Shown: positions 7 to 36,868 of the stretch, one piece after another
How positions within the stretch are numbered: position 1 is the stretch's first letter
Layout of the letters: each line of letters begins with the position of its first letter
Assembly (NCBI GenBank): GCA_910587445.1
Contig: CAJULE010000001.1
Location: 99,748-163,747 of the forward strand
From: an uncultured Christensenellaceae bacterium
GTDB lineage: Bacteria; Bacillota; Clostridia; Christensenellales; Pumilibacteraceae
Direction of reading: 5' to 3'
Length of the DNA stretch: 64,000 nucleotides
Position numbers and translations under genes: made by a program
The notes under the pieces: generated by a model
Told to the model about the DNA's origin: nothing
Seen by the model: the letters and a program-made list of their open reading frames with translations, nothing else
The model's database searches: none

Positions 7-1656
7 ATGGCAAGCCTTATACTTTTGCTCGGCTCTCTCTCTTACATAATGATTTTAGCCGTTATAAACGGCAGTATCGGTTTTATATGCGCTATGGGCG
101 TTACCGTGTTCGGTGCGGTGGGCGTGGCAAAAGCGCTCGGTGAAACGATTGCGATGTCTTACGGCTTAATAATCGGTCTTGCCGTAGGTTGCGGCGTTCT
201 GCGCGGTATCTTGCGCTATTTCGAGCAGTACAGCAATCACTTTATAGCGTTCAAACTATTGGCGGTTTTGCGCGATAAGATATTCGGTGCGCTTCGCACA
301 TTGTGTCCGGCAAAACTCGAAAGCAAACAAAAGGGCAGTATCATTGCTATGATAACAAGCGACATAGAAACGCTCGAAGTGTTCTATGCGCACACCATTT
401 CACCTATATGTATCGCGGTTTTGGTATCTACGGCGGTGTTCCTGTTTGTCGGTTTTGTATCGTCTTGGTATCTTGCGCTTGCGGCGGTTGTCGGATATAT
501 AATGATCGGTATCGTCGTACCTATGATTTCTTCGTCAAGGCTTAAAGAGAGCGGCGTTAAATACCGTGCCGAATTTGCGTCTTTCAATGCGTACTTTCTT
601 GACAGTATAAAGGGCATTAAAGACATCGTATTGAACAACGCGGGAGCGGAGCGCGAAAAGGAAGTAAACCGCCGCAGTGAACTCTTGCTCAAAGAAACAA
701 AGAAAATGAAACACAACTCTACCCGTGCGGCGGCGGCAACCGAACTTACGGTATCGCTGTTCATAATAGCGACGCTTATCGTCGGCATCGTGCTTGTGCA
801 TTTCGATATGCTCTCTATCGGTAAAATGATAATCGGCGTTGTGGCGGTGTTCGGCTCGTTCGGTCCCGTTATTGCAATATCGGCATTGCCGAGCAATCTT
901 ACGCAGACGTTCGCAAGCGGCGACAGAGTGCTGAATTTGCTTGCGGAAAAACCTGCCGTAACGGAAGTAACAAGCAGCGAGAATATCGAATACGAAAATT
1001 TGAACGTGTCCGACTTATCGTTTAGTTACGACGGGCAGACGGAAGTTTTGCAAGATATTAGAATGCACGCCGAAAAGGGCGAGATAATCGGAATCGTCGG
1101 CGAGAGCGGTTGCGGTAAATCTACATTCTTAAAACTGTTGCTTCGTTTTTGGCAGAAGAACGGCGGTGAGATTGCTTACAACGGAATCGACATTGATAAA
1201 GTGAACTCGGAAAATCTTTTAGACAACGTAACAATGGTAAGTCAAACGACGTACCTTTTCGACGAAACGATAGAAGATAACTTGCGAATCGCAAAACCGA
1301 ATGCAAGCAGGGAAGAACTCGAAGCGGCGTGCCGTCTTGCTTCCGTTCACGACTTTATTATGACGTTGCCTGACGGCTACAAAACGCAAGTGGGTGCGCT
1401 CGGCGACAATCTATCTGCCGGCGAAAAACAGCGCATAGGACTTGCGAGAGCGTTTTTGAAAGGTAGCGAACTGATCCTTTTGGACGAGCCGACGAGCAAC
1501 GTGGACAGTATCAACGAGGGCATTATCTTAAAAGCCTTAAAAGAGCAAAAGAGCAAAAAGAGCATTATACTCGTTTCACACCGTGAGTCTACAATGGCGA
1601 TTGCCGACCGTATCTACCGTGTGGCTGACGGAAAAATGCAAGAGGTAACGATATGA
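7..1656 (+). CDS. ABC exporter, fused permease + ATP-binding subunit (CydC/CydD-like); may begin at or just upstream of window start
   Basis: N-terminal half has about 6 TM helices. Walker A GESGCGKST, ABC signature LSAGEKQRIGLARA, Walker B ILLDEPTSNVD, H-loop SHR. Stop overlaps next start (ATGA). Confidence 0.8.
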   Translation: MASLILLLGSLSYIMILAVINGSIGFICAMGVTVFGAVGVAKALGETIAMSYGLIIGLAVGCGVLRGILRYFEQYSNHFIAFKLLAVLRDKIFGALRTLCPAKLESKQKGSIIAMITSDIETLEVFYAHTISPICIAVLVSTAVFLFVGFVSSWYLALAAVVGYIMIGIVVPMISSSRLKESGVKYRAEFASFNAYFLDSIKGIKDIVLNNAGAEREKEVNRRSELLLKETKKMKHNSTRAAAATELTVSLFIIATLIVGIVLVHFDMLSIGKMIIGVVAVFGSFGPVIAISALPSNLTQTFASGDRVLNLLAEKPAVTEVTSSENIEYENLNVSDLSFSYDGQTEVLQDIRMHAEKGEIIGIVGESGCGKSTFLKLLLRFWQKNGGEIAYNGIDIDKVNSENLLDNVTMVSQTTYLFDETIEDNLRIAKPNASREELEAACRLASVHDFIMTLPDGYKTQVGALGDNLSAGEKQRIGLARAFLKGSELILLDEPTSNVDSINEGIILKALKEQKSKKSIILVSHRESTMAIADRIYRVADGKMQEVTI

Positions 1657-2345
1657 CGCCGAGAGAAAAAGCAATACTCGAACTTGTAAGACTGTCAGAC
1701 GAAGAAGAAAAGCAAGCCGAGCAACAGGCAAAAGCCGAAGCGGAAGCAGTACAGTCGAATGATGCGGCGGTCAAGAAAGAAAAGGTTTTCAAGAAGTACA
1801 TGATAAAGGACATAGTGTTCCTTGCTATCATTACGGCTTGTACTTTGGTTACGGGCGCGATTATGCCATTGTTGGTAAACGTGCCGCTGTTCGGTATCAT
1901 ACAGTTGGGACTTGGGATTCAGTTTTCGCTGTTTCCCGTTATAGGAATGATGAAAGTAAAAAAGCCGTTCGCGCTTTTATTGCAATCGATGTTTATTTCG
2001 ATATTCCTTGTGTTTATGTTTCCGCCTATGGTGCTATTGATTGCGTGCGCCCTTGTAGCGGAACTGTTGACTCTGCTCATATTCAGAGGGTATAAAAACG
2101 ATTGGGCGTGCGTGTTTGCAGGAACGCTGTATATGCCGCTCACTCTGCCGCTACTCTATATGTATTACAACGTGTTCTATACGGTAAGCGGAGAAGAAAA
2201 GGCGGCGGTGTCTATGTTTATCGGCGGCGGTAACGTAGGATTGACTGTCGGAATATCGTTCGCCGTAGTTGCCGTTTGTTTTGTCGGCTCGGTCATCGGT
2301 ATGGTTATTGCGCGCGAACTCAAAAAGGCGGGTAAATTGAAGTAA
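1653..2345 (+). CDS. polytopic membrane protein, putative ECF-transporter substrate-specific (S) component (Trep_Strep-like) with charged about 50-aa N-terminal extension
   Basis: About 6 hydrophobic helices. Immediately followed (stop/start overlap) by EcfT and a fused double ECF ATPase. Family assignment from gene context and size only. Confidence 0.5.
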   Translation: MTPREKAILELVRLSDEEEKQAEQQAKAEAEAVQSNDAAVKKEKVFKKYMIKDIVFLAIITACTLVTGAIMPLLVNVPLFGIIQLGLGIQFSLFPVIGMMKVKKPFALLLQSMFISIFLVFMFPPMVLLIACALVAELLTLLIFRGYKNDWACVFAGTLYMPLTLPLLYMYYNVFYTVSGEEKAAVSMFIGGGNVGLTVGISFAVVAVCFVGSVIGMVIARELKKAGKLK

Positions 2346-3022
2346 TGGCGTTTTTCAGATACAAAAGAAATCTATATCCGCTTATAGCGATAGCGTCGGC
2401 GTTACTCATTATGGTGTTCGGTCTTGTTATGGCGCGGACGGAAAAGTGTTCGTATTTTTTGCTCGGCGCACTTGTGTGGGTGATACTTTTCGGTTGCTAT
2501 AAACAGGCGCTAAAAGCGTTGCCGCTTTTTATCGTGTTCGGCGGCGTGTTCTCGCTTATAGCGTACTTTTCAAGCGGCAAAAATTTCGACAGCGCACTTG
2601 CTATGGCTAATCGTTTAGGCGCGGTGTTTTTGGCGATAATTCCGAGTATGAGCATACAAGCAGTCGCTATGACGAGAAATTTATCGCAGTTACATACGCC
2701 GCGAGGAATAACGCTCGGTATGCTTATAACGATGTCGTTCATTCCCGTACTTCGAGCGGAAATAAAACGCGTGCGCGAAGCGATGAAAACACGCGGTGCA
2801 GGGAGTATTCTCAATCCGAAAATCTTTTACCGTGCGTTCTTGATTCCGCTTGTAACACGGCTTGTCGATATATCCGATACGCTTAGCGTCTCTATCGAAA
2901 CGCGCGGTTTTACGCTCGGAAAATCAAAGTACACGGTCTATAAAAAGGAAGCAATAAATTATATGGATGTAGTGTATTTGCTCGGTCTGATTGCAGGCGT
3001 GGTTTTGTGCGTCGTCTTATAA
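2345..3022 (+). CDS. ecfT: energy-coupling factor transporter transmembrane (T) component, CbiQ/EcfT family
   Basis: Multi-TM protein between the S-component candidate and the duplicated ATPase. Conserved EcfT-like C-terminal coupling region (RAEIKRVREAMKTRG). Confidence 0.65.
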   Translation: MAFFRYKRNLYPLIAIASALLIMVFGLVMARTEKCSYFLLGALVWVILFGCYKQALKALPLFIVFGGVFSLIAYFSSGKNFDSALAMANRLGAVFLAIIPSMSIQAVAMTRNLSQLHTPRGITLGMLITMSFIPVLRAEIKRVREAMKTRGAGSILNPKIFYRAFLIPLVTRLVDISDTLSVSIETRGFTLGKSKYTVYKKEAINYMDVVYLLGLIAGVVLCVVL

Positions 3023-3146
3023 GCGTCGCAATACAGCGTTGCGGTGCGCTTTTCTCGGGTCATTTACGTTTAAGTAAACTCCCCATCGAAAATGCTCCCG
3101 CGCCTTGTCTTGCTTGCTTCTAAAACGACTTATTTGAGAGGTAATT

Positions 3147-4571
3147 ATGAAAGCAATCGAATTAAAGAATGTAAGTTTTTCATATAGCGGTTTTGCCGAT
3201 AAGGTTTTATCGGACGTGGACTTTTATGCCCTCTACGGCGAAGTTGCGCTGTTGTCCGGACTGTCGGGCGAGGGTAAAAGCACGTTGCTTTCGATTGTGT
3301 CGGGCATTATACCGAATATCGTAAAGGGCGACATTACGGGCGAAGTGCTTGTTGACGGTAAATCTATTATAGGACAAAAGTTGGCGGCAGTCTGCCGTAA
3401 GGTGGGCGTGGTTTTGCAGAACGCCGACAGTCAGATAATACATAAAACGGTAGACGACGAGATCGCGTTCGGGTGCGAGAATTTTGCGATTGAATCGAAT
3501 AAAATCGGGGAGCAAATAGAAAGAGTATGCACGATAGTCGAACTCGATAAATCGGCAGGAACGCGAACGCTGTCGGGCGGTCAAAAACAACGGCTTATAA
3601 CCGCGTCAACGCTTGCGACAAGGCAACGCATTTTGATACTCGACGAGCCGCTTGCAAATCTCGACGTTGAGAGTGCGAATCTTTTAATGGATACATTGCG
3701 TAGGCTTGCAAAGGCAGGGTACGCCGTTTTAATAGTGGAACACAGGCTCGATATGGTGTTGCCGTTCGTTGACAGCGTTTGGAACATTCGCGCCGGCGTT
3801 GTTACGAAAATAGAGAATAAGCAGGAATATTTGCTGTCGCAGACGGTGGCTATCAAAGATAACAGCGACGACCACGCAAGAGGAGCAAAGATTTTCGACG
3901 TTGAGAACGTAGCGTTTTCGATAAAGAAAAAAGAGATATTAAATGACGTAAGTTTTGAAGTTTACGAGGGCGAACGGCTGTTGCTTCTCGGCGAAAACGG
4001 CTCAGGTAAAACTACGCTTATGCGGTTACTCGCAAGGCTGTATAAGCCGACTTTAGGCAAGATAGAGCAAATGCTCAACCCGAAGTTCGGCAAACGCTAT
4101 CGCGGAAAGAAATGGTTCAAAGCAGTCGGCGTGGTGTATCAAAATCCCAACTATCAGTTGTTTATGCCGACCGTAGAACAGGAGATTGCATTCGGCGCGG
4201 TAAACAAAGAATACGCCGAAGAAATGATAAAACTCTTTGGCTTGGAGCACTTGCGGAAACGGCATCCGCAGTCGCTCAGCGAAGGACAAAAGCGCAGAGT
4301 GTCCATAGCGGCGGTGGCGGCAACTAACCCGAAAGTGCTACTTCTCGACGAGCCGACGGTAGGGCAGGACTACAAAGGACTTTGCGAACTTGTAAAGATT
4401 CTCGATATGCTGCACGACAAGAGCGGTAATACAATGATTACGATTACTCACGATATGCGTTGTGCCGAAGCCTTGTGCGATAGGGCAATACTTATTGCGG
4501 ACGGAACGGTAAAAGAGCAGGGCGGCAAGGAACTCGCACACAGATATTTTTTCGATAGGAATTTTCAGTAA
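3147..4571 (+). CDS. ECF transporter ATPase, two fused ABC ATP-binding domains (EcfA1-EcfA2-like)
   Basis: Two complete ABC cassettes. First: SGEGKST Walker A, LSGGQKQR signature, LILDEP Walker B. Second: GENGSGKTT Walker A, LSEGQKRR signature, LLLDEP Walker B. Confidence 0.85.
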   Translation: MKAIELKNVSFSYSGFADKVLSDVDFYALYGEVALLSGLSGEGKSTLLSIVSGIIPNIVKGDITGEVLVDGKSIIGQKLAAVCRKVGVVLQNADSQIIHKTVDDEIAFGCENFAIESNKIGEQIERVCTIVELDKSAGTRTLSGGQKQRLITASTLATRQRILILDEPLANLDVESANLLMDTLRRLAKAGYAVLIVEHRLDMVLPFVDSVWNIRAGVVTKIENKQEYLLSQTVAIKDNSDDHARGAKIFDVENVAFSIKKKEILNDVSFEVYEGERLLLLGENGSGKTTLMRLLARLYKPTLGKIEQMLNPKFGKRYRGKKWFKAVGVVYQNPNYQLFMPTVEQEIAFGAVNKEYAEEMIKLFGLEHLRKRHPQSLSEGQKRRVSIAAVAATNPKVLLLDEPTVGQDYKGLCELVKILDMLHDKSGNTMITITHDMRCAEALCDRAILIADGTVKEQGGKELAHRYFFDRNFQ

Positions 4572-18875: not shown

Positions 18876-20507
18876 ATGGACGCAACGGAAAAGCAACAGT
18901 TGTATTTAAGGGCGCAGGAGCATTTCAGGAATAACGAGCTTGACAAGGCTTTTGCGGAGTTCGACGAGCTCGGCGGTTATCGCGACAGCTACACCTATCT
19001 CGGCTTTATCTCGATGAAGCATCCGCACCCCGGCGTTACGCTCGAATTTACGGCGCAGTGCTTTGCTCTCGGAAGGAAGAAGGGAGACGCCAAAGCCGTG
19101 CTGCTGACCGCGGACTTTGCCCGCAGGATAGGCGAGGGGGAAAAAGCTCTCGGCTATGCGAAACAGGCGATAGACGGTCTCGAGGTGCTTTCGGCAAGCG
19201 ACGACTTCTTTGCGACATACCTGCTCGCGCAGTATTATTCTTATACGGGAAATCCCGAAAAGGCATTCACGCTTGCGCTCAAGGCGGCGGAACGCGGCTA
19301 TTGTGCGGCGGAGTTCTTGGTATCGCAGATGTATGCCGAGGGAAGCGGAACCAATGTCGACGAGGTCAAGGCGGTCAACTACATCGAAAAGTCCGCATAT
19401 AAAAATTACGGCGAAGCGCAGTATGCGCTCGGCTTCCGTTATTCGAAAGGCAACGGCGTACCGCAAGACGACGACATGGCGCTCAAGCTCTATCAAATGG
19501 CGGCGGAGAGCGGCATAAGCGGCGCGGCTTACAATCTCGCGCTTTGGTACGAGAGAAATTACGACAATGCAAATTGCTTCCGCTGGCTCAGGCGCGCGGC
19601 GCTTCTCGGCGACGTGCCCGCGATGATGAAGCTTGCGATGTTCTACGAGGGCGAGAGCGAGCACGACAGCTCTTCCGCTTGCCTGTGGTACGACATGGCG
19701 GCGAGCAAGGGCAGCAGCGAAGCCATATTCCTGCTCGGCGAGCATTTCGAGAGCGGCGAGGGCGTGCCCAAAGATATGAAGCGCGCAGTCGAGTGCTTCG
19801 AGACGGCGGCTCAGGCGGGATATAACCCTGCGCAGAGCAAGCTCGGATATATTTACAAAAACGAAACCGCCTTTCTCAATCCCGAACGCAGTATCTATTG
19901 GAACAACAAGGCGGCGGAGAACGGCGATATGCGCGCCCTGTGCAATCTCGGTCTTGCTTACGAGTTCGGCAACGGCGTGGAAAAGGATCCGAAAAAGGCA
20001 TTCGATCTGTATTTGAAGTCGGCTCGGCTCGGATACGACAGAGGTATGTACAATCTCGCATTCTGCTACATGAAGGGCAACGGCACTCGCGAGGATCATT
20101 GGCAGGCGGCGCAGTACTTCGAAAAGGCGGCGCAGAAAGGCCACGTGAACGCCATGTACAATATCGGCGTCATGTATCTTAACGGAGACGGCGTGAACAA
20201 AGATTGCAAGCGTGCGGCGGAATGGTTCTACAAAGCCGCGCAGAACAACAATATTGAATCGATTTTCTATCTCGGCTATTGCTACCTTAACGGTCTCGGC
20301 GTCAAGAAATATCCGGCAATGGCTGTGCACTATTTCCGCAAGGCGGCCGACGGCGGCGACGTGGAAGCCATGTTCAACCTCGGCTATTGCTATTACAACG
20401 GCAACGGCGTCGGCGAGGACAGAGTAATGGCAAAAAAGCTGTGGAAAAAGGCTGCGGCGGAAGGTCACGCATATGCGCGTGAAGTCCTCGATTCCATAGG
20501 CGAATAA
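18876..20507 (+). CDS. Sel1-like repeat (SLR/TPR-like) protein
   Basis: At least 10 tandem about 36-aa repeats of the Sel1 type (A.YNLG..Y..G.GV..D...A..W..KAA..G). Confidence 0.8.
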   Translation: MDATEKQQLYLRAQEHFRNNELDKAFAEFDELGGYRDSYTYLGFISMKHPHPGVTLEFTAQCFALGRKKGDAKAVLLTADFARRIGEGEKALGYAKQAIDGLEVLSASDDFFATYLLAQYYSYTGNPEKAFTLALKAAERGYCAAEFLVSQMYAEGSGTNVDEVKAVNYIEKSAYKNYGEAQYALGFRYSKGNGVPQDDDMALKLYQMAAESGISGAAYNLALWYERNYDNANCFRWLRRAALLGDVPAMMKLAMFYEGESEHDSSSACLWYDMAASKGSSEAIFLLGEHFESGEGVPKDMKRAVECFETAAQAGYNPAQSKLGYIYKNETAFLNPERSIYWNNKAAENGDMRALCNLGLAYEFGNGVEKDPKKAFDLYLKSARLGYDRGMYNLAFCYMKGNGTREDHWQAAQYFEKAAQKGHVNAMYNIGVMYLNGDGVNKDCKRAAEWFYKAAQNNNIESIFYLGYCYLNGLGVKKYPAMAVHYFRKAADGGDVEAMFNLGYCYYNGNGVGEDRVMAKKLWKKAAAEGHAYAREVLDSIGE

Positions 20508-22164: not shown

Positions 22165-22923
22165 ATGAACGAATGGTGGCAGGCATTGTCTGCGCTTCAG
22201 CAGGTCATGTTCGTGATAGGGGCGGCAACGCTTCTGTTTATGATTGCGCAGATAGTAATGATGCTCGTAGGGCTCGGGGATAACGACCTTTCTACGGACG
22301 CCGATTTGTCGGGTGTTTCCGACGCGGGCGGCGATTTGGACGCGGACGTTTCCGGGATCGACGCGGGCGACGGAAGTTTCGACGTAAGCTCGGGCGGCAT
22401 CGGAGACGTGGGCGGCGACGTCGGCGGAGCGGGTCATGCGATTGAGCCGCACTGTCCTCATCCGGGCGGCTTCCACGCCCTCGGCATGAGACTGCTTTCG
22501 CTTCGCTGTATAATAGCGTTTTTCTGTTTCGGCTCTTGGGTAGTGTTCATTATGGACGCGCTCGTAGATTGGTACTTCGCTCTTATTATAGGCGTGGTTG
22601 CGGGCTTCGCAGCCGCAGTCTTAATGGCGCTTATCATGAACCAGATCATGAAGCTTCAGGGCGACGGAACCATCAAAATGAAGAACTGCATAGGTAAGGA
22701 AGGCGAGGTGTACCAGATAATTCCCGCCTCGCGCGAAGGAATCGGTAAGGTCAATATTCTCATTCAGGAACGCTTTAAGGAGTTCGACGCAATGACCGAC
22801 GACGACGATTCCATAGGCGCGGGAGAAACGGTGCGCGTCGTAAAAGTGGATTCGTCTTCCGCGGTAGTCGTCGAGCGCGTCAAGGACAAAAACAGACAGT
22901 CGCGTCACGACAAAGAGAATTAA
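22165..22923 (+). CDS. NfeD/YuaF-like membrane protein (OB-fold C-terminal domain) with Asp/Gly-rich low-complexity linker
   Basis: N-terminal TM helix, then a D/G-rich about 70-aa acidic stretch. Two more TM helices, then a C-terminal NfeD-like beta-barrel (GKEGEVYQIIPASREGIGKVNILIQERF). Directly upstream of flotillin. Confidence 0.65.
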   Translation: MNEWWQALSALQQVMFVIGAATLLFMIAQIVMMLVGLGDNDLSTDADLSGVSDAGGDLDADVSGIDAGDGSFDVSSGGIGDVGGDVGGAGHAIEPHCPHPGGFHALGMRLLSLRCIIAFFCFGSWVVFIMDALVDWYFALIIGVVAGFAAAVLMALIMNQIMKLQGDGTIKMKNCIGKEGEVYQIIPASREGIGKVNILIQERFKEFDAMTDDDDSIGAGETVRVVKVDSSSAVVVERVKDKNRQSRHDKEN

Positions 22924-22970
22924 AAAGGCAATGTTTAAGGATAATAGATAGGAGGTATAAATAAAAGAAC

Positions 22971-24395
22971 ATGGCAAACATAATTTCGGCAATCCCTATG
23001 GGCGGAGTGATCGGCATAATCGTCGGCGCGGTTGCGGTCGCGATAATCCTTATTCTCATTATAGCAAGCCGCTATAAGAAGTGTCCGTCCGACAAGATAA
23101 TGGTAATCTACGGTGCCGTAGGCAAGACGAAAGACGGCTCGGCGAGAGCTTCGCGCTGTATACACGGCGGCGGTGCGTTCGTATGGCCCGTCGTGCAGTC
23201 GTACAGCTTTCTCGACCTCACGCCCATATCGATAAACGTCGACCTTAAGGGTGCGCTGTCCCGTCAGCAGATACGTATCGACGTGCCTTCGCGTTTTACC
23301 GTCGGCATATCGACGACGCCAGGCGTCATGCAGAACGCGGCAGAGCGTCTGCGCGGCTTGAGACTCGGCGACATACAGGAGCTCGCGAAGGACATAATCC
23401 TCGGTCAGCTCAGACTCGTAGTCGCGCTCATGGACATAGAGGAAATAAACTCCGACAGAGATAAGTTCCTCGACGCAATCACGCGCAACGTAGAGGGCGA
23501 GCTCAAGAAGATAGGTCTTCAGCTCATAAACGTCAACATAACCGATATTTCCGACGAGTCCGGCTATATCGACGCTCTCGGTAAGGAAGCTGCGGAACGT
23601 GCGAACAGCGACGCTCGCCGTGCGGTCGCCGAAAAGAGAAGAGACGGCGCGATCGGCGAAGCCAACGCGCAGATGGAAGAAAGAATACGCGTCGCCGAAG
23701 CAAACTCCAAAGCGGTGGAAGGCGAGAACACTTCGCAAGCCGAAGTAAGTAAGTCGAACGCAATTCGCCGCGAGGCGGAGGCAGAAGCCGAAAGAAGAGC
23801 TACGGTCGCCGAAATGACGGCGGAGGCAAAGGCGAAAGCCGAGGCGTACAAGGCGGAGCAGCTTGCCGAGCAGGTGCGTGCCGAGAGAGAAAAGAGCACG
23901 CTTGAAGCCGACGTCATCGTAAAAGTAGAGGTCGAAAAGCGCAAGCGCGAGCTCGAAGCCGAAGCCGAAGCGGAAATGATCCGCAGAAAGGCGCAAGGCG
24001 AGGCGGACGCTCTCATGGCGATGAAGATTGCGGAAGCAAAAGGTATGTACGAAGTGCTCAGCAAGCAGGCGGAAGGTTTCGAAAGGATCGTAAAGGCCGC
24101 GGGCGGCGCGGACGCCGCCGTGCAGATGCTTCTCACCGACAAGATGGAAGAGCTCGTCAAGCTTCAGGTCGAAGCCATCAAGAACGTGAAGATAGACAAG
24201 GTCACCGTTTGGGACAACATGAACGGCAAGGACGGTTCGTCCACGACCTCTAACTTCATTTCGAGTATGCTGAACGTCGTGCCGCCGATGAACGAAATTT
24301 TCAAGATGAACGGCATGAAGTTGCCCGAATATCTCGGAAAGGAAGCCGAGGTAAAGGCGCTTGCGGAACCCGAAGCAAAGCGGGCGAAGAAGTAA
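22971..24395 (+). CDS. floT: flotillin-like SPFH/band-7 protein (FloT/YuaG-like)
   Basis: N-terminal TM anchor and SPFH domain. Long Ala/Glu-rich EA-repeat coiled coil. Conserved C-terminal flotillin tail. Confidence 0.85.
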   Translation: MANIISAIPMGGVIGIIVGAVAVAIILILIIASRYKKCPSDKIMVIYGAVGKTKDGSARASRCIHGGGAFVWPVVQSYSFLDLTPISINVDLKGALSRQQIRIDVPSRFTVGISTTPGVMQNAAERLRGLRLGDIQELAKDIILGQLRLVVALMDIEEINSDRDKFLDAITRNVEGELKKIGLQLINVNITDISDESGYIDALGKEAAERANSDARRAVAEKRRDGAIGEANAQMEERIRVAEANSKAVEGENTSQAEVSKSNAIRREAEAEAERRATVAEMTAEAKAKAEAYKAEQLAEQVRAEREKSTLEADVIVKVEVEKRKRELEAEAEAEMIRRKAQGEADALMAMKIAEAKGMYEVLSKQAEGFERIVKAAGGADAAVQMLLTDKMEELVKLQVEAIKNVKIDKVTVWDNMNGKDGSSTTSNFISSMLNVVPPMNEIFKMNGMKLPEYLGKEAEVKALAEPEAKRAKK

Positions 24396-31630: not shown

Positions 31631-31657
31631 TGCCCGGAGCCGTATTCATCGTCTAAG

Positions 31658-31884
31658 ACGGGTTGCGTGTGACGCTTTGCCTCGGTTGTGTACATCAAAG
31701 TACACGCCCTCGGCACACGTCGCCTGCTACCCGCCTTAGACGCGACTACGGCTTCGGGAGTGTCGGGAATAGTGGCAACGGGTTGCGTGCTTCTTGCCGC
31801 TCGGGCGCTGTACGGTGTGGTACAGCAACCCGAGCGTCTCGTCGCCTGCTACCCGCCTTAGGCGCGACTACGGCTTCGGGAGTG
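31658..31884 (+). repeat. tandem pair (about 105 nt units, period about 120) of GC-rich structured intergenic repeats upstream of thrC
   Basis: Unit A is 31658-31762, unit B is 31778-31884. Shared blocks: acgggttgcgtg...tcgcctgctacccgccttag(a/g)cgcgactacggcttcgggagtg. Each unit carries a central gtacN6gtac hairpin with compensatory changes (gtgtac/gtacac vs ctgtac/gtacag). Confidence 0.5.
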
Positions 31885-31969
31885 ATTTGGTATAAAGCAA
31901 TCGGCTATGTGCGGCGCACGTAATATGCCGAACGTGCACACGAATTTACGGTGCTTGGAGGAGCAGACA

Positions 31970-33448
31970 ATGAACTATATTTCCACGAGAAACGCGTCCT
32001 TGAAAGTGAGCGGCGCAGAAGCGATCGTCGGCGGCATAGCTCCCGACGGCGGTCTTTATGTGCCCGAGGTCATACCCGAGGTCACGGCGAAGGAAAGGGA
32101 AGCCCTTGCTGAAATGGACTATCCCGCGCGTGCCGCTTTCATAATCGGAAAGTATTTGCCCGAGCTTAAGGACGAGCTTCTTTCTTGGTGCGAAAAGGCG
32201 TATTCGCGGTTCGACGGAGATCCCGCGCCGCTCGTGAAAATAGAGGACAATTTCTATCTTCTCGAACTGTGGCACGGACCGACGCACGCATTTAAGGATA
32301 TGGCGCTCACGCTTTTGCCCTATCTCCTTACGGGAAGCAAGCGCGTGCTAAAACGCACGGACAGGACGCTCATACTCGTCGCGACGAGCGGCGACACGGG
32401 CAAAGCGGCGCTCGAGGGGTTTAGAGACGTCGACGGCACGGATTGTATAGTGTTCTATCCGAGCGGCGGAGTAAGCGAGCTTCAGCAGCTTCAAATGCAG
32501 ACGCAGAAGGGCGGAAACGTATACGTGTCGGCAATCGAAGGTAATTTCGACGACGCGCAGAGCGCAGTCAAAAAGATATTCACGGACGATTCCGTAAGGA
32601 ATAATCTTGCCTCACTCGGATATAATCTGTCGAGTGCGAACTCGATAAATTGGGGACGGCTCGTGCCGCAAATAGCTTACTATTTTTCGGCGTATGCGGA
32701 CCTTGTGTCGAGCGGAGAGATCGAGGACGGCGACAAGGTCGCGTTCAGCGTTCCGACGGGCAATTTCGGGAACATCCTCGCGTGCTATTACGCGATGCGC
32801 ATGGGACTTCCCGTCGAGCGCCTCGTGTGTGCTTCCAACGACAACAACGTGCTCACCGACTTTTTCGATACGGGCATATACGACGTGCACCGCGAATTTT
32901 ATAAGACGATAAGTCCGTCCATGGACATACTTGTCTCGTCGAATTTCGAAAGGCTTCTGTTCGAAGTCTCGGGTCGTGACGATGAGCTTACGGCTCGCCG
33001 CATGAACGAACTGAAAGAGAACGGAAAGTATGTCGTGAGCGACGGGGAGCTTGCAAAGCTGTCGGAGCTGTTCTTTGCCGACTATGCAAGCGACGAAATA
33101 ACGAAAGAGACGATAGGGGGCTTTTTCGAGGACACCGGCTATATTCTCGATCCTCACAGCGCCGTCGCGGTTTCCGCCGCCGACGCATATGTCGGAAGCG
33201 ACGAGATCCCCATTGTCACGGTTTGTACGGCAAGCCCATATAAATTCGTCGGCTCGGTGCTCGAAGCCATAGGCGAAAGCGTGCCGAAAAGCGCTATTAA
33301 GGCTCTCGTAAAGCTCGAGAACGAAACGGCTTTGCCGCTTCCCGAAAGTCTTAAGGAGCTCGAAACGCTCGAAAAGAGATTTACGGGCGTAGTCGGCAGG
33401 GACGGTATAGAGGGCGTTGTCATGAAATACGCAAAGGAGCGGGCATAG
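31970..33448 (+). CDS. thrC: threonine synthase
   Basis: PLP-lysine motif PTHAFKDMAL. SGDTGKAA. Overall ThrC length and domain order. Start ATG 31970 with GGAGGAGCAGACAATG. The ORF-track start 31907 lacks an RBS. Confidence 0.85.
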   Translation: MNYISTRNASLKVSGAEAIVGGIAPDGGLYVPEVIPEVTAKEREALAEMDYPARAAFIIGKYLPELKDELLSWCEKAYSRFDGDPAPLVKIEDNFYLLELWHGPTHAFKDMALTLLPYLLTGSKRVLKRTDRTLILVATSGDTGKAALEGFRDVDGTDCIVFYPSGGVSELQQLQMQTQKGGNVYVSAIEGNFDDAQSAVKKIFTDDSVRNNLASLGYNLSSANSINWGRLVPQIAYYFSAYADLVSSGEIEDGDKVAFSVPTGNFGNILACYYAMRMGLPVERLVCASNDNNVLTDFFDTGIYDVHREFYKTISPSMDILVSSNFERLLFEVSGRDDELTARRMNELKENGKYVVSDGELAKLSELFFADYASDEITKETIGGFFEDTGYILDPHSAVAVSAADAYVGSDEIPIVTVCTASPYKFVGSVLEAIGESVPKSAIKALVKLENETALPLPESLKELETLEKRFTGVVGRDGIEGVVMKYAKERA

Positions 33449-33450
33449 AA

Positions 33451-34452
33451 TTGGAACAGGATAAGAAAAGAGTTTTCTCCGCGATACAGCCCACAGGCGG
33501 TATCACGATAGGCAACTATATAGGCGCGGTGCGCAACATGGTCGCAATGCAGGACGAATACGAGTGTCTGTATGCGGTCGCCGATCTCCACAGCCTCACC
33601 GTGGACATAGCGCCGGCGGCGCTGCGCAAGAATACTATCGAGCTTGCCGCTCTTCTGATCGCGGCGGGTATCGATCCCGAAAAGAGCATATTTTTCGTGC
33701 AGTCGCAGGTGCACGAACACGCCGAGCTCGGCTGGGTGCTCAACTGCTATGCGCAGTTCGGCGAAGCGCGCAGAATGACGCAGTTCAAGGACAAGAGCGC
33801 CAAGGCTCCCGAAAACGTAAACGTCGGACTGTTCGACTATCCCGTTTTGATGGCTGCGGACATACTCCTTTATATGACGGACTACGTCCCCGTAGGCAAG
33901 GACCAGGTACAGCACCTCGAACTGAGCCGCACGATTGCCGAGCGCTTCAACAACCGCAATTCGCCGACGTTTAAGGTTCCCGAGGCAATACTTCCGAAGT
34001 TCGGACAGAAGGTGCGCTCGCTTGTCGATCCGACGGCGAAGATGTCGAAGTCGGACAGCGACCCGAACGGATATGTGCTCGTGCTCGACAGACCGGAGGA
34101 CATTGCGAGAAAGTTCAAGCGCGCCGTCACGGACAGCGACGCAAGGATCGTATATGCGCCCGAGGAAAAGCCGGGCATAAGCAATCTTCTTACGATATAT
34201 TCGGCGTTTGCGGACGCGGATATGGAGGAGAGCGTGAAGCGTTTCGAGGGAAGGGATTACGCCTATCTCAAGTCGACCGTCGCCGACGCGGTGATAGAGG
34301 GCTTGCGTCCGATACGCGAAAGCTTCGACATGATCATGCGGGATAAGAACGAGCTGATGAAAAAGCTCGAAACAGGCGCGGAAAAGGCGTCTTACATCGC
34401 TCGGCGCACGATGTCCAAGGTCTGGCGAAAGCTCGGCTGCGTTAGACCGTAA
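33451..34452 (+). CDS. trpS: tryptophan--tRNA ligase
   Basis: Class I HIGH-like TGGITIGNY and KMSKS motifs. 333 aa. Confidence 0.9.
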   Translation: MEQDKKRVFSAIQPTGGITIGNYIGAVRNMVAMQDEYECLYAVADLHSLTVDIAPAALRKNTIELAALLIAAGIDPEKSIFFVQSQVHEHAELGWVLNCYAQFGEARRMTQFKDKSAKAPENVNVGLFDYPVLMAADILLYMTDYVPVGKDQVQHLELSRTIAERFNNRNSPTFKVPEAILPKFGQKVRSLVDPTAKMSKSDSDPNGYVLVLDRPEDIARKFKRAVTDSDARIVYAPEEKPGISNLLTIYSAFADADMEESVKRFEGRDYAYLKSTVADAVIEGLRPIRESFDMIMRDKNELMKKLETGAEKASYIARRTMSKVWRKLGCVRP

Positions 34453-35324
34453 TGTACGGCTACGTCGTCCCCGACAAGAGCGTCTTAAAGGTGCAGGACT
34501 TCGTGCTGTACCGCGCGTTTTATTGCGGGCTTTGCAAGAGTATAGGGCGGCAGTTCGGTCAGTTTCCGCGCTATACGACGAACTACGACTTTACGTTCTT
34601 CAGCGTGTTTTTGCACGATTGTATGAGTGCGGACGTGACCATCTCCGAAGAGAAGTGCGTCGGCAATCCGTTCCGAAAGAAAGCCGTCGTAAAAAACAGC
34701 GAGCTTCTCGACACCGTTGCCGCGGTCAATATAATCCTTTCGTACTATAAGGCGGTTGACGGCGTGCGCGACGGTGAAGGCGGCAAAATGCGCGTCGCGA
34801 GACGTATGCTCAAAAGACCGTTCGAGAGGGCAAAGGCAAGGTGTCCCGAAGTGGAAGAGATCGCGCGCGTCGGATACGAAAAACTTTACGCGCTCGAACA
34901 GGCAAAAGAGGTCGGTACGGACAGACTTGCCGATTGCTTTGCGTCCATGCTCAGAGACATTGCAAAAGTCCTTTTAAAGGACAAGAGCGACGGATTCAAG
35001 GAAGGCGTCATGTACAACGTCGGAAAGTTCGTCTATCTTACGGACGCTCTCGACGATGTGACCGAGGATTTCAAAAAGAAACGGTACAATCCGCTTCTTG
35101 CGGAGTTCGGAAACTTTACTACGCGCGAGAAGTTCATCGCCGACAATTACGACGATTTGAGCTTTATGCTCACGGCGACGCTCAACCGCGCGATCGCCGA
35201 CTTCAACAACATAAGCTTTACGCAGAGCTACGACCTCATGCGGAACATACTTTACAACGGTATGCGGGCAAAAGTAAAAGAATTGCTTTCAAGTAAGAAA
35301 AAATTGCCGAAGCCGAAGATATAA
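34452..35324 (+). CDS. conserved hypothetical protein (Cys-containing N-terminus FYCGLCKSIG; possibly a DUF5685-like Clostridial family)
   Basis: Start overlaps trpS stop. No recognisable catalytic motifs. The family guess comes from memory, not from a search. Confidence 0.5.
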   Translation: MYGYVVPDKSVLKVQDFVLYRAFYCGLCKSIGRQFGQFPRYTTNYDFTFFSVFLHDCMSADVTISEEKCVGNPFRKKAVVKNSELLDTVAAVNIILSYYKAVDGVRDGEGGKMRVARRMLKRPFERAKARCPEVEEIARVGYEKLYALEQAKEVGTDRLADCFASMLRDIAKVLLKDKSDGFKEGVMYNVGKFVYLTDALDDVTEDFKKKRYNPLLAEFGNFTTREKFIADNYDDLSFMLTATLNRAIADFNNISFTQSYDLMRNILYNGMRAKVKELLSSKKKLPKPKI

Positions 35325-35395: not shown

Positions 35396-36007
35396 ATGGT
35401 AAACAACCCTTACGAAATATTGGACTTACCCGAGGACAGCAGCGAGGAGCTGTTGCGCGCGCGCTATAACGAGCTCAAGACCAAGTACTCCGAACAGCGT
35501 TTCGAAGCGGGCGAAGCCGGCAACGAAGGCGCAAACAAGCTCATGGAGCTCGAGGAAGCCTGGAACATAATTTCCGCCGAGCTCGACAAGAAGCGCACGA
35601 AGGAGCGTTACGGCGACAATCTCGGCGGCATAGACGAGCTCATAAAAAAGGGCAAGTACGACGAAGCGCAAGCCCTTCTCGACGCGCACACGGAGCGCGG
35701 CGCGGAATGGCACTATCTTCAGTCGATAATTTTCTATAAGCGAGATTGGCTCACCGAAAGCCGCAAACAACTCAAAATGGCTGTCGAGCTCGCGCCCGAA
35801 GTGGAGAAGTATCGCGAGTCGCTCACGAAGCTCGAGATGGTCATGGGCAATCCGAACGCGCAGGCGCAGAACCTCGGCAGGCAGGGGAACGGTCCCGTCA
35901 TGGACAACGGCGGAGACGCGCAGCAGGCGGGCAACTGTCTTTCGAGTTGCTGCATGGCTTACTGCCTTACGGACTGTTGCTGTAACGCAATGCGCTGCTG
36001 CGGATAA
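35396..36007 (+). CDS. J-domain-like protein with degenerate HPD (SEQ) motif, helical middle and poly-Cys C-terminal tail
   Basis: PYEILDLPEDSSEELLRARYNELKTKYSEQR aligns with the DnaJ region YYEILGV...IRKAYKRLAMKYHPDR, with HPD replaced by SEQ. C-terminus is NCLSSCCMAYCLTDCCCNAMRCCG. Confidence 0.55.
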   Translation: MVNNPYEILDLPEDSSEELLRARYNELKTKYSEQRFEAGEAGNEGANKLMELEEAWNIISAELDKKRTKERYGDNLGGIDELIKKGKYDEAQALLDAHTERGAEWHYLQSIIFYKRDWLTESRKQLKMAVELAPEVEKYRESLTKLEMVMGNPNAQAQNLGRQGNGPVMDNGGDAQQAGNCLSSCCMAYCLTDCCCNAMRCCG

Positions 36008-36012
36008 TCGCA

Positions 36013-36741
36013 ATGTCCGAAAACCCGAACAACAAAGAGGTCGGCGAAAAAGACGCCGATAAAACCGGCGGGGCGGAGAGTAAAGAAAAATCCGTTTCCG
36101 AAGAGAGTGCGGCGACAGCAGAAAAGAAGCCGTTCGAAGAAGCGGCAGATCCGTTCGACGGATATGACGCACCGAAAGCGGTCTCGGACAAAAAGCCCGA
36201 CAAACGCTTCGAGAAAGCGGAAAAGCAGTCGGCGCGCATAGCGTATGCGGCTGCGGGCACGGCGATTGCTATAATCGCGTCGGTCGTAACCGTCTATTTG
36301 CCCGTAAGGATAATGCCCCTCGTGCTCGCGGCGTTCTGCTTTTTTCTCGTACATACGAAGTGCGGGATAGTATACGGGAGCATATCCGCCGCAGCCACCG
36401 TGCTCGTGACGGGACTTTGCGGGGGCATATGTTCGTCGCTCGTGCTGCTTGCGGTATGTTTTTTTCCGTACAGTCTCGTCTGTATTCCGCTCAGAAGATT
36501 CGATTACCGCTCGGTGGGCGGGGCGCTTCTGCGCGCGGCGGTTTCGATAGTCATAGTAAACATAGCTTTCGTCGTCGTATATTTCGTGGCGAAGTATACG
36601 GTGCTCGGCGGGATCGACGTCATGGAAGCGGTGGGAAAGCTCGGCTATCTCATAATAGCGCTCGTCGCAAGCGCCGTCGCCGTCATAACCGACGTTCTGT
36701 TCGTGCTCTGCGACAAGGTTATAACGCCGAAGATAAGGTAA
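36013..36741 (+). CDS. polytopic membrane protein with acidic/Lys-rich N-terminal tail, Cys-rich helices
   Basis: Starts 6 nt after the previous stop. About 5 TM helices containing CGGIC and VCIPL motifs. Confidence 0.5.
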   Translation: MSENPNNKEVGEKDADKTGGAESKEKSVSEESAATAEKKPFEEAADPFDGYDAPKAVSDKKPDKRFEKAEKQSARIAYAAAGTAIAIIASVVTVYLPVRIMPLVLAAFCFFLVHTKCGIVYGSISAAATVLVTGLCGGICSSLVLLAVCFFPYSLVCIPLRRFDYRSVGGALLRAAVSIVIVNIAFVVVYFVAKYTVLGGIDVMEAVGKLGYLIIALVASAVAVITDVLFVLCDKVITPKIR

Positions 36742-36842
36742 AGGCGACGGGGACTTACGGGAATTGCGAACTTGTCTTAAAAAATCATTCAAGCCGTATC
36801 AAAATGCTTGACAAGCCTTGATGTTTATGGTAATCTTATAAA

Positions 36843-36868
36843 GCACCACTAATCGGGTGGTGTTTTTA
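36843..36868 (+). terminator. rho-independent terminator upstream of rpmG
   Basis: caccac taatcgg gtggtg, then TTTTT. Confidence 0.55.

Follow-up and report, generated by a model that had tools for sequence, protein, structure and literature searches.

The J-like protein and its gene cassette

We analyzed a 64,000-nucleotide stretch of DNA from an uncultured Christensenellaceae bacterium (contig CAJULE010000001.1, positions 99,748 to 163,747 of the forward strand; hereafter the window), focusing on a gene for a J-like protein with a C-terminal Cys cluster and on the genes beside it. On the + strand, thrC (31907-33448) and trpS (33451-34452) are followed by a gene for a DUF5685 protein (34452-35324), by the open reading frame (ORF) of the J-like protein (35396-36007) and by a membrane-protein ORF (36013-36741), beyond which rpmG, secE, nusG, rplK, rplA and rplJ are encoded on the same strand. 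The J-like and the membrane-protein ORF exist as described in the initial annotation of the locus, with a spacer of 5 nt, rather than six, between the stop codon of the one and the ATG of the other. The upstream DUF5685 gene, which is the most constant partner of the J-like gene, was missing from that annotation. Its ATG shares 1 nt with the trpS stop codon (TAATG), and trpS is translationally coupled to it here and at two other loci (L090 and L091). The antisense ORFs over the cassette stretch, though long, are without support. The cassette comprises the following genes.

34452-35324, + strand: DUF5685 gene, 290 aa, a predicted trans-isoprenyl-diphosphate-synthase-fold enzyme and the constant upstream partner
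35396-36007, + strand: J-like/TPR-like/Cys-tail gene, 203 aa, stop codon included
36013-36741, + strand: polytopic membrane-protein gene, 242 aa, the frequent third cassette member

The 203-aa J-like protein is built of a J-domain fold, a TPR-like domain, a linker that varies and a Cys tail of 24 residues; these four parts, together with the segment replacing the canonical His-Pro-Asp (HPD) motif, map to these positions.

35396-35611, + strand: J-like domain, residues 1-72, with helices 5-8, 17-34 and 40-72 (profile, model, fold search and hhalign)
35489-35497, + strand: codons of S32-E33-Q34, replacing HPD inside the conserved loop Y-[SG]-E-Q-R-F-x-x-G-E-x-G-N-E-G-A, residues 31-46 (alignments)
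35621-35848, + strand: TPR-like helical domain, residues 76-151, with invariant W105, H106, Q109, Y114, R116 and W118
35849-35932, + strand: low-complexity variable linker, residues 152-179, predicted disordered (low model confidence, low conservation)
35933-36004, + strand: C-terminal Cys cluster NCLSSCCMAYCLTDCCCNAMRCCG, residues 180-203, 9 Cys (conservation 0.78)

The single sequence scores against the Pfam DnaJ model with E=0.0024 and 18.4 bits, which is under the 27.8-bit cut-off, and matches the Pfam TPR models weakly. A 30-sequence family profile matches the J-domain of E. coli DnaJ over positions 2-72 (E=8e-7) and, weakly, HscB (E=0.029). The AlphaFold2 (AF2) model of the protein, with a predicted local distance difference test score (pLDDT) of 80.5, is all helical and confident for residues 1-155, the pLDDT being <50 at residues 163-186, and a Foldseek search with this model returned J-domains as the best matches with a probability of about 1. 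Aligned by hhalign to relatives with a true HPD motif, the family matches end to end over 191 columns (probability 100%, E=6e-48), and Y-S-E-Q-R-F is found gap-free opposite Y-H-P-D-N-Y. The residue-for-residue correspondence with J-domains noted initially is reproduced by profile-based comparison, and the replacement of HPD by SEQ is confirmed at residues 32-34.

The initial annotation regarded this J domain as degenerate, but the clade descends from a canonical HPD family, and loop 31-46 (YSEQRFEAGEAGNEGA) is the most conserved segment within the HPD-less branch (0.86), the J-like domain scoring 0.67, the TPR-like domain 0.72, the tail 0.78 and the linker 0.35. Because the loop is more conserved than the rest of the protein, the alignments indicate that the J-like domain is derived rather than decayed and that the replacement loop has acquired a new function. 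We considered a pseudogene or decaying J domain and rejected it, as the conservation speaks against it. The His and Pro of HPD are required for stimulation of the Hsp70 ATPase; the J-like domain of the HPD-less clade is therefore unlikely to activate the DnaK ATPase, and its fold may have been kept as a binding module.

All Cys residues of the protein are confined to the tail, which contains no Trp and has 9 Cys in 24 residues, not the 11 counted originally. Tails of this kind are conserved in the family: among 227 full-length members the number of tail Cys is nearly always 7-12, the commonest count being 9 within the last 26 aa, and conservation on this scale is far beyond chance. Clostridial tails are hydrophobic, with L, M, A, Y and I between the Cys residues, and carry conserved Asp/Glu and Arg. 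A classical tail-anchor transmembrane (TM) helix was rejected as an explanation, given a mean hydropathy of ~1.0 (hand-calculated) and the conserved Asp/Glu and Arg.

We found 157 close homologs, nearly all of about 200 aa and almost all from uncultured Clostridia, most of which carry no label or are termed 'hypothetical', 'J domain-containing' or 'DnaJ'. Scanning one genome per species, we found a relative encoded in 574 species genomes or more, the samples being mostly gut or otherwise host-associated; among the hosts are three Pumilibacteraceae isolates (Pumilibacter muris, P. intestinalis and Anaerocaecibacter muris) as well as Candidatus Borkfalkia and Protoclostridium. HMMER, run exhaustively against 1.84 billion representatives, yielded 767 clusters (50% identity) at E<=1e-10. 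The statement that the protein belongs to no described family still stands: no Pfam or NCBIfam model describes the J/Cys-tail family, and the literature searched for Cys-rich bacterial J proteins and for a bacterial 'cysteine string' contains no description of the family or of the cassette. The family is thus a large, undescribed one of small cytoplasmic J-type proteins from anaerobic Clostridia.

At the HPD position, none of 80 genome loci encodes HPD (GEQ in 37, SEQ in 15, SEE in 8 and other variants in the rest), and the motif occurs in 12 of the 227 family members, every one of them from another branch. More distant members have a canonical KYHPD, yet share the TPR-like signature AEW[HNY][FY]...[RK]xW and also end in a Cys tail of the form C..C..L.C.DCCCECMGGDLI.CC. 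Since the HPD-bearing relatives have both features in common with it, the alignments place the window protein in an HPD-less, derived branch (Pumilibacteraceae-like) of a genuine J-protein family. An HPD relative from the isolate Pusillibacter faecalis passes both Pfam DnaJ (65.9 bits) and TPR_2 (30.7 bits). The J protein of Subdoligranulum variabile (OY725846.1; L095 3935-4570), whose genome encodes the full three-gene cassette, unannotated in the record, has NPD in the place of HPD and may represent an intermediate state. Longer 'fusion' relatives (P0363, P0377, P0383 and similar) match neither DUF5685 nor the membrane family and were set aside as possible assembly chimeras.

We compared the gene context of the 80 genome loci, all HPD-less, with that of relatives retrieved by exact look-up of representative proteins. 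As far as the contig reaches, all 80 genome loci have the order (thrC-)trpS, DUF5685, J-like gene and membrane protein, and the DUF5685 gene lies immediately 5' of the J/Cys-tail gene in every locus with upstream sequence. The HPD or near-HPD contexts are unrelated to this one and comprise addAB and V-ATPase genes at L083, a Clp-type AAA+ ATPase gene with an AI-2E transporter at L088, a glycosyltransferase with radC at L089, and cdaA, rseC and yicC at L092 in Pusillibacter; in Subdoligranulum variabile (L095), the cassette sits within an unannotated stretch. Every HPD-less lineage sampled has retained the order trpS-DUF5685-J, which is seen in none of the HPD lineages. The coupling to a downstream membrane protein seen initially in the window holds more widely, with a polytopic ORF (4-7 predicted TM segments) 3' of the J-like gene in 77/77 loci with enough downstream sequence. 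At L083, L086, L088, L089 and L095, a protein of 172-190 aa without a Pfam match is encoded 3' of the J gene, and a hidden Markov model of the window membrane family matches two of these proteins (E=5e-11 and 4e-25). At L085, L091 and L092, the membrane gene is missing beside the DUF5685-J pair. The invariant pair is therefore DUF5685 and the Cys-tailed J protein, with the membrane protein as a frequent third member. In Pusillibacter faecalis, and in this one case only, an RseC/MucC-family gene (Pfam 90.5 bits; L092 3086-3496, NZ_AP023421.1 162150-162560) is located 4 nt 5' of the DUF5685 gene, a possible redox or iron-sulfur (Fe-S) hint.

The predicted DUF5685 enzyme and Cys-rich tails fused to it

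The protein encoded upstream of the J-like gene matches DUF5685 (PF18937) with 243.8 bits versus a Pfam cut-off of 26.7 bits. Its AF2 model, built from a 37-sequence alignment, has a pLDDT of 93.5 and a predicted template-modeling score of 0.91, shows the trans-IDS fold (IDS, isoprenyl diphosphate synthase), and has chain-length synthases and the lipid prenyltransferase MoeN5 among its nearest structural neighbors. Judged from this model, DUF5685 is predicted to have a trans-IDS fold. In a cross-clade alignment of 18 sequences from several Clostridial clades, D103, D107, E149, D157, G191, Y195, D198, A199, D202, D206, Y212, N213 and N265 are invariant, and C25, C28, C69, K192 and D201 are near-invariant. 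Three elements stand out, two of which occupy positions like those of the first and second Asp-rich motifs (FARM and SARM) of trans-IDS enzymes.

34524-34535, + strand: C25..C28 codons (YCGLC), which with C69 (34656-34658) give three conserved Cys (alignment columns)
34758-34772, + strand: first Asp-rich motif D103-x3-D107, at the C-terminal end of helix 84-106, FARM-like position (alignment and model)
35043-35069, + strand: second Asp-rich motif D198-A-x-D201-D202-x3-D206, after G191-K-x-x-Y195, at the end of helix 181-201, SARM-like (alignment and model)

As for FARM and SARM, the two Asp clusters are located at helix ends, four helices apart. The Asp-rich motifs of the trans-IDS fold hold Mg2+ and the prenyl diphosphate, and the segment G-K-x-x-Y-x-x-D-A-x-D-D resembles G-x-x-F-Q-x-x-D-D-x-x-D of that family. 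The invariant and near-invariant columns contain a single conserved basic residue, K192, and in our reading of this column list no basic motif for binding of isopentenyl diphosphate (IPP) is evident. For this reason we infer that DUF5685 would be a transferase or ionizing enzyme rather than a chain-elongating synthase. C25, C28 and C69 are kept also in the DUF5685 proteins of Chondrinema, Nonomuraea, Nocardia and Tsukamurella, and may together form a metal site. No DUF5685 relatives were found in viral contigs, and the literature searched on DUF5685 goes no further than a listing. A conserved basic tail terminates the Clostridial DUF5685 proteins (SSKKKLPKPKI; a mean of 4.3 Lys/Arg in the last 15 residues of the window protein and P0136-P0255), and could make contact with a partner or with the membrane.

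Five DUF5685 proteins from outside the Clostridia were obtained by tblastn against annotated records of plasmids and chromids. All five have a Cys-rich segment fused C-terminally to the DUF5685 domain, and a J-domain neighbor is encoded at none of their loci. The fused segments contain 7-25 Cys and are rich in Asp, Gly and His; in some of them a polybasic stretch, as also seen in lipid-anchored proteins, precedes the Cys-rich tail.

Chondrinema litorale (Bacteroidota), L093 3501-4757: 418 aa, ...CCCHQCCNNCKCPCEDCHCSGCHCDNGCSCPDCHCNCDICNACNCDCGDCC...
Nonomuraea gerenzanensis (Actinomycetota), L094 3501-4679: ...CCERFDCSGYECCGNCGNCCSCCSGEDGGCGCDGCSCGCD
Nocardia farcinica (Actinomycetota): 18 Cys within the last 60 residues
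Nocardia sp. PE-7 (Actinomycetota): fused Cys-rich segment
Tsukamurella tyrosinosolvens (Actinomycetota): GRRRKTRKDAAKKRRDDGWCDGGDCGDCCCGDGCCDCS

The two Nocardia proteins and the Tsukamurella protein are encoded at L096 2501-3508, L097 2501-3502 and L098 from 2501, and membership in PF18937 above the cut-off was confirmed for the Chondrinema and Nonomuraea proteins. The 120 Clostridial DUF5685 proteins have only 0-2 Cys in their last 40 residues, with a basic end of the KKLPKPKI type. The Cys cluster is thus either fused to DUF5685 or carried by an adjacent J/TPR protein, and this distribution argues strongly that enzyme and Cys cluster work together as a functional pair.

The membrane protein and other features of the window

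The third protein of the cassette evolves fast, with only 15 word-sharing homologs found, and can be divided into two parts.

36013-36237, + strand: acidic/Lys-rich N-terminal extension, residues 1-75, with 19 Asp+Glu and 15 Lys+Arg, lineage-specific
36238-36738, + strand: conserved membrane core of ~170 aa, with F150-x-P-Y153, R174, G211-Y212 and D227

The core consists of 5-6 TM segments. A long acidic and Lys-rich tail, as described initially, is present and is formed by the N-terminal 75 aa; it is not conserved, as proteins from other lineages have no N-terminal charged tail or carry a charged C-terminal extension in its place. The description of the protein as Cys-rich was overstated, since it contains 7 Cys in 242 aa, of which C109 alone shows moderate conservation (66%). 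A recurring family signal comes only from the energy-coupling factor (ECF) transporter S-components: 9/57 members of the membrane family give sub-threshold, near full-length matches to the S-component model PF12822 (best E=5.4e-5), and the window protein itself is without a match. DUF2232 is matched by 3 members, an NCBIfam S-component family weakly by one, and a profile search of the PDB with the membrane family returned nothing. EcfT or EcfA genes are found in the cassette at no locus, the ECF genes of the window (7-4571) being 30 kb off. We treat the S-component-like character of the protein as a lead only.

Between the membrane gene and rpmG lies a hairpin that is likely to mark the transcript end of the cassette or else to form part of the rpmG leader.

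36840-36867, + strand: hairpin GCACCAC/GUGGUGU with a 7-nt loop, followed by U5 (sequence and fold)

A TTGACA-like hexamer is found near 36808, upstream of this hairpin. A promoter and terminator scan gave nothing convincing within the cassette, and an Rfam search found no riboswitch or T-box 5' of thrC-trpS and no other RNAs in the 28-41 kb region. The 276-nt gap upstream of thrC contains an inverted repeat of ~120 nt (31632-31759); a match to a plant miRNA hairpin, on both strands and far sub-threshold, was discarded, the repeat being just a long hairpin. Elsewhere in the window, an ECF-type transporter set (7-4571) comprises, besides a CbiQ/EcfT-like protein (2345-3022) and a fused double ATPase (3147-4571), a membrane protein of 230 aa (1653-2345) that has no Pfam match and may be its S-component. 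A 543-aa protein at 18876-20507 has 8 Sel1 repeats (Pfam E=1e-84), and a classic NfeD-SPFH pair is located at 22165-24395, where the gene of an NfeD-like membrane protein precedes that of an SPFH/Band-7 (flotillin-like) protein.

Candidate functions and relation to known systems

The adjacency of the two genes and the prenyl-enzyme shape of DUF5685 suggest a bacterial lipid-anchoring system. In the mechanism that we favor, DUF5685 would bind a prenyl diphosphate via Mg2+ held by its Asp motifs and would move the prenyl group onto thiols of the C-terminal Cys cluster (S-prenylation). The lipidated tail would fix the J/TPR module to the cytoplasmic face of the membrane, beside the membrane protein of the cassette; the module would recruit DnaK to this site in HPD lineages and be a DnaK-independent adaptor in the HPD-less lineage. 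Enzymes resembling trans-IDS are known to prenylate terminal residues of a peptide encoded alongside them, with insertion at the terminal residue favored (PMC13290415). We put forward S-prenylation of the Cys tail by DUF5685, and with it the membrane anchoring of the J/TPR module, as a tentative proposal.

Several points weigh against it. The characterized trans-IDS-like peptide prenyltransferases all modify Trp, not Cys (PMC13290415), and in DUF5685 Tyr195 stands at the position of the Trp-recognizing Gln. The fused tails, with their many Cys, Asp, Gly and His residues, have a composition equally typical of metal-thiolate sites, and the three invariant Cys of DUF5685 hint at a metal or Fe-S site. 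A sequence-profile search of the PDB with DUF5685 returned only designed helical repeats and no prenyl synthase, and hhalign of DUF5685 against E. coli IspA (approximate sequence) gave a probability of 0.07. The Cys tail itself is modeled at low confidence in the AF2 model of the J-like protein, and the membrane protein is not obligatory. The IspA alignment segment, which places the helix leading into D103 opposite the helix leading into FARM, was treated as no evidence. We also considered Trp prenylation of the invariant W105 and W118, and rejected it because both residues occupy structural TPR positions.

The main alternative, though a somewhat unlikely one, is a metal or Fe-S module, in which the Cys cluster, on the J/TPR protein or on the fused DUF5685, would bind a metal-thiolate or Fe-S center. 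The J/TPR protein would be a scaffold of the HscB/IscU type or a metallochaperone that loads the three-Cys site of DUF5685 or the membrane protein, with DnaK driving release in HPD lineages. The fused tails are metallothionein-like in composition, with CHC, CxC and CCD runs among Gly, Asp and His, and the three DUF5685 Cys are conserved across phyla; the hydrophobic Clostridial tails, however, differ from classic metallothioneins, and no metal-homeostasis genes are conserved near the cassette. The RseC/MucC-family gene directly 5' in Pusillibacter would fit, RseC being linked to Fe-S protein reduction, as would the part that J proteins play in Fe-S transfer through HscB (textbook knowledge), to which our family profile has its weak match, and the recurring weak similarity of the membrane protein to ECF S-components, some of which carry metals. 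A metal module leaves unexplained both Asp-rich motifs of prenyl-diphosphate type in DUF5685, as class I isoprenoid enzymes bind Mg2+ by Asp and not by thiols. More improbable, in our view, is a lipid-product cassette, in which DUF5685 would make or modify a small isoprenoid lipid that is bound or moved by the membrane protein, the J/TPR protein being an assembly factor or regulator whose tail is membrane-associated alone or via S-acylation or disulfides and is not a substrate. The isoprenoid-synthase fold with its Asp motifs, the chain-length synthases and MoeN5 among the structural neighbors, the weak resemblance of the membrane protein to small-ligand-binding S-components and the moderately hydrophobic tail are all in line with such a cassette. 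It is harder to reconcile with K192 as the sole conserved basic residue and with a column list from which no IPP-binding motif stands out, it does not explain the recurrent fusion of Cys-rich segments to the enzyme in other phyla, some lineages do without the membrane protein, and the conserved Asp/Glu and Arg make the tail a poor TM helix.

The gene order of a trans-IDS-like enzyme, a substrate and a polytopic protein mirrors comQ-comX-comP (textbook knowledge; for ComQ/ComX, PMC5331326 and PMC13290415), and the J/TPR protein could accordingly be a long leader whose modified Cys tail is cleaved off and exported as a signal, with the membrane protein as exporter or receptor. We consider a signal of this kind very improbable: the tail is strongly conserved over hundreds of species, unlike pheromone cores, protease, ABC exporter and kinase domains are all absent from the cassette, the 150 aa of the 'leader' form a folded two-domain protein under strong selection, and the fused versions retain the tail on the enzyme. 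We give still less credence to a spore-coat or sporulation assembly factor, as suggested in the initial annotation. Cys-rich proteins are generally known from spore coats and the hosts are Clostridia, but nothing ties the protein to sporulation: the conserved neighborhood has no sporulation gene, the cassette lies between trpS and rpmG-secE-nusG here and in other housekeeping contexts elsewhere, and the pair of enzyme and Cys cluster is found in Actinomycetota and Bacteroidota as well. The other proposal made initially, a lipid-anchored or metal module, fares better. Both possibilities are now the leading readings, the DUF5685 partner pointing to prenylation and not to S-acylation. Overall, the observation underlying the initial annotation is confirmed with small corrections, its interpretation is partly supported, and the function is not proven. 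The locus is of more interest than that annotation held, because of the upstream enzyme with a prenyl-synthase fold and the cross-phylum fusion of Cys tails to it.

A wider claim, which we regard as doubtful, is that the cassette represents the first endogenous bacterial system for protein S-prenylation, giving rise to a lipid-anchored J-type adaptor at the membrane as a bacterial counterpart of the eukaryotic cysteine-string protein, and that its enzyme, which would lipidate its own tail in other phyla, is the first polypeptide prenyltransferase of the trans-IDS-like kind to act on Cys rather than Trp. To our knowledge, Cys prenylation has so far been regarded as eukaryotic, being found in bacteria only where pathogens use host enzymes. 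Should S-prenylation prove true, bacteria would own a way to lipid-anchor cytoplasmic proteins by prenylation of Cys. Whatever the chemistry, DUF5685 gains a predicted fold, candidate catalytic motifs and an obligate Cys-cluster partner, and a large unannotated J-type family is defined, including branches in which the HPD loop has turned into a new motif. Hosts are available in culture (Subdoligranulum variabile, Pusillibacter faecalis, Pumilibacter and Anaerocaecibacter), if with phenotypes described to a limited extent, and make these hypotheses directly testable.

We compared the cassette to known systems that share parts of its architecture. In cysteine string protein (DNAJC5/CSP), an HPD J domain is combined with a palmitoylated, centrally placed string of ~14 Cys, and the lipidated string anchors the co-chaperone to vesicle membranes. 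As a small J-type protein with a dense Cys string, CSP is the closest architectural analog of the window protein, and its J-domain is found among the profile matches (E about 4e-4) and at Foldseek rank 2. The homology is that of a generic J fold, however, with other J-domains scoring better; the Cys cluster of the window protein (9 of 24) forms the very C-terminus, behind a TPR-like domain, HPD is absent, and the partner, with its isoprenoid-synthase fold, is no acyltransferase of the DHHC type. We thus rejected membership in CSP, given the lack of HPD, the different string position and the lack of specific homology. In the HscB-IscU system, a specialized J protein likewise works with a Cys-ligand scaffold (textbook knowledge). 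In the cassette, there is no IscU-like fold, the Cys cluster sits on the J protein itself and the partner has a prenyl-synthase fold.

Mitochondrial Pam16/Tim16 and DNAJB13 have a J fold without a functional HPD and are binding or regulatory modules, not activators of Hsp70. The HPD of DNAJB13 is described as corrupted (10.1101/2022.02.28.482344). Both resemble the window protein in that the J fold is kept without a functional HPD; their lineage and partners are unrelated, and the replacement loop in the window protein is a conserved new motif. The combination of a J domain with TPR repeats is a recognized class C architecture (bioRxiv 10.1101/2022.02.28.482344), and the class C proteins DNAJC3/p58IPK and DNAJC7, of which p58IPK appears in both fold searches, resemble in this the window protein with its J-like and TPR-like domains. 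In the window protein the order is reversed, with the J domain at the N-terminus, there are only about 2 repeats, a Cys tail and an obligate DUF5685 neighbor are added, and HPD has been lost in the clade.

The closest enzymatic analog of the cassette is found in the ComQ/ComX-type pairs (ComQ, PalQ, ChrPC; Ord1), with which it shares the predicted fold and the first Asp motif; the gene for the Cys tail, a putative substrate, is adjacent in every locus sampled. Enzymes of the ComQ/PalQ type have a Gln before the second motif (PMC13290415), where DUF5685 has the invariant Tyr195, and the tail contains no Trp. Unlike in those pairs, the putative substrate is a folded protein of 200 aa or the enzyme's own tail rather than a short secreted peptide, and DUF5685 carries an extra N-terminal element with three Cys.

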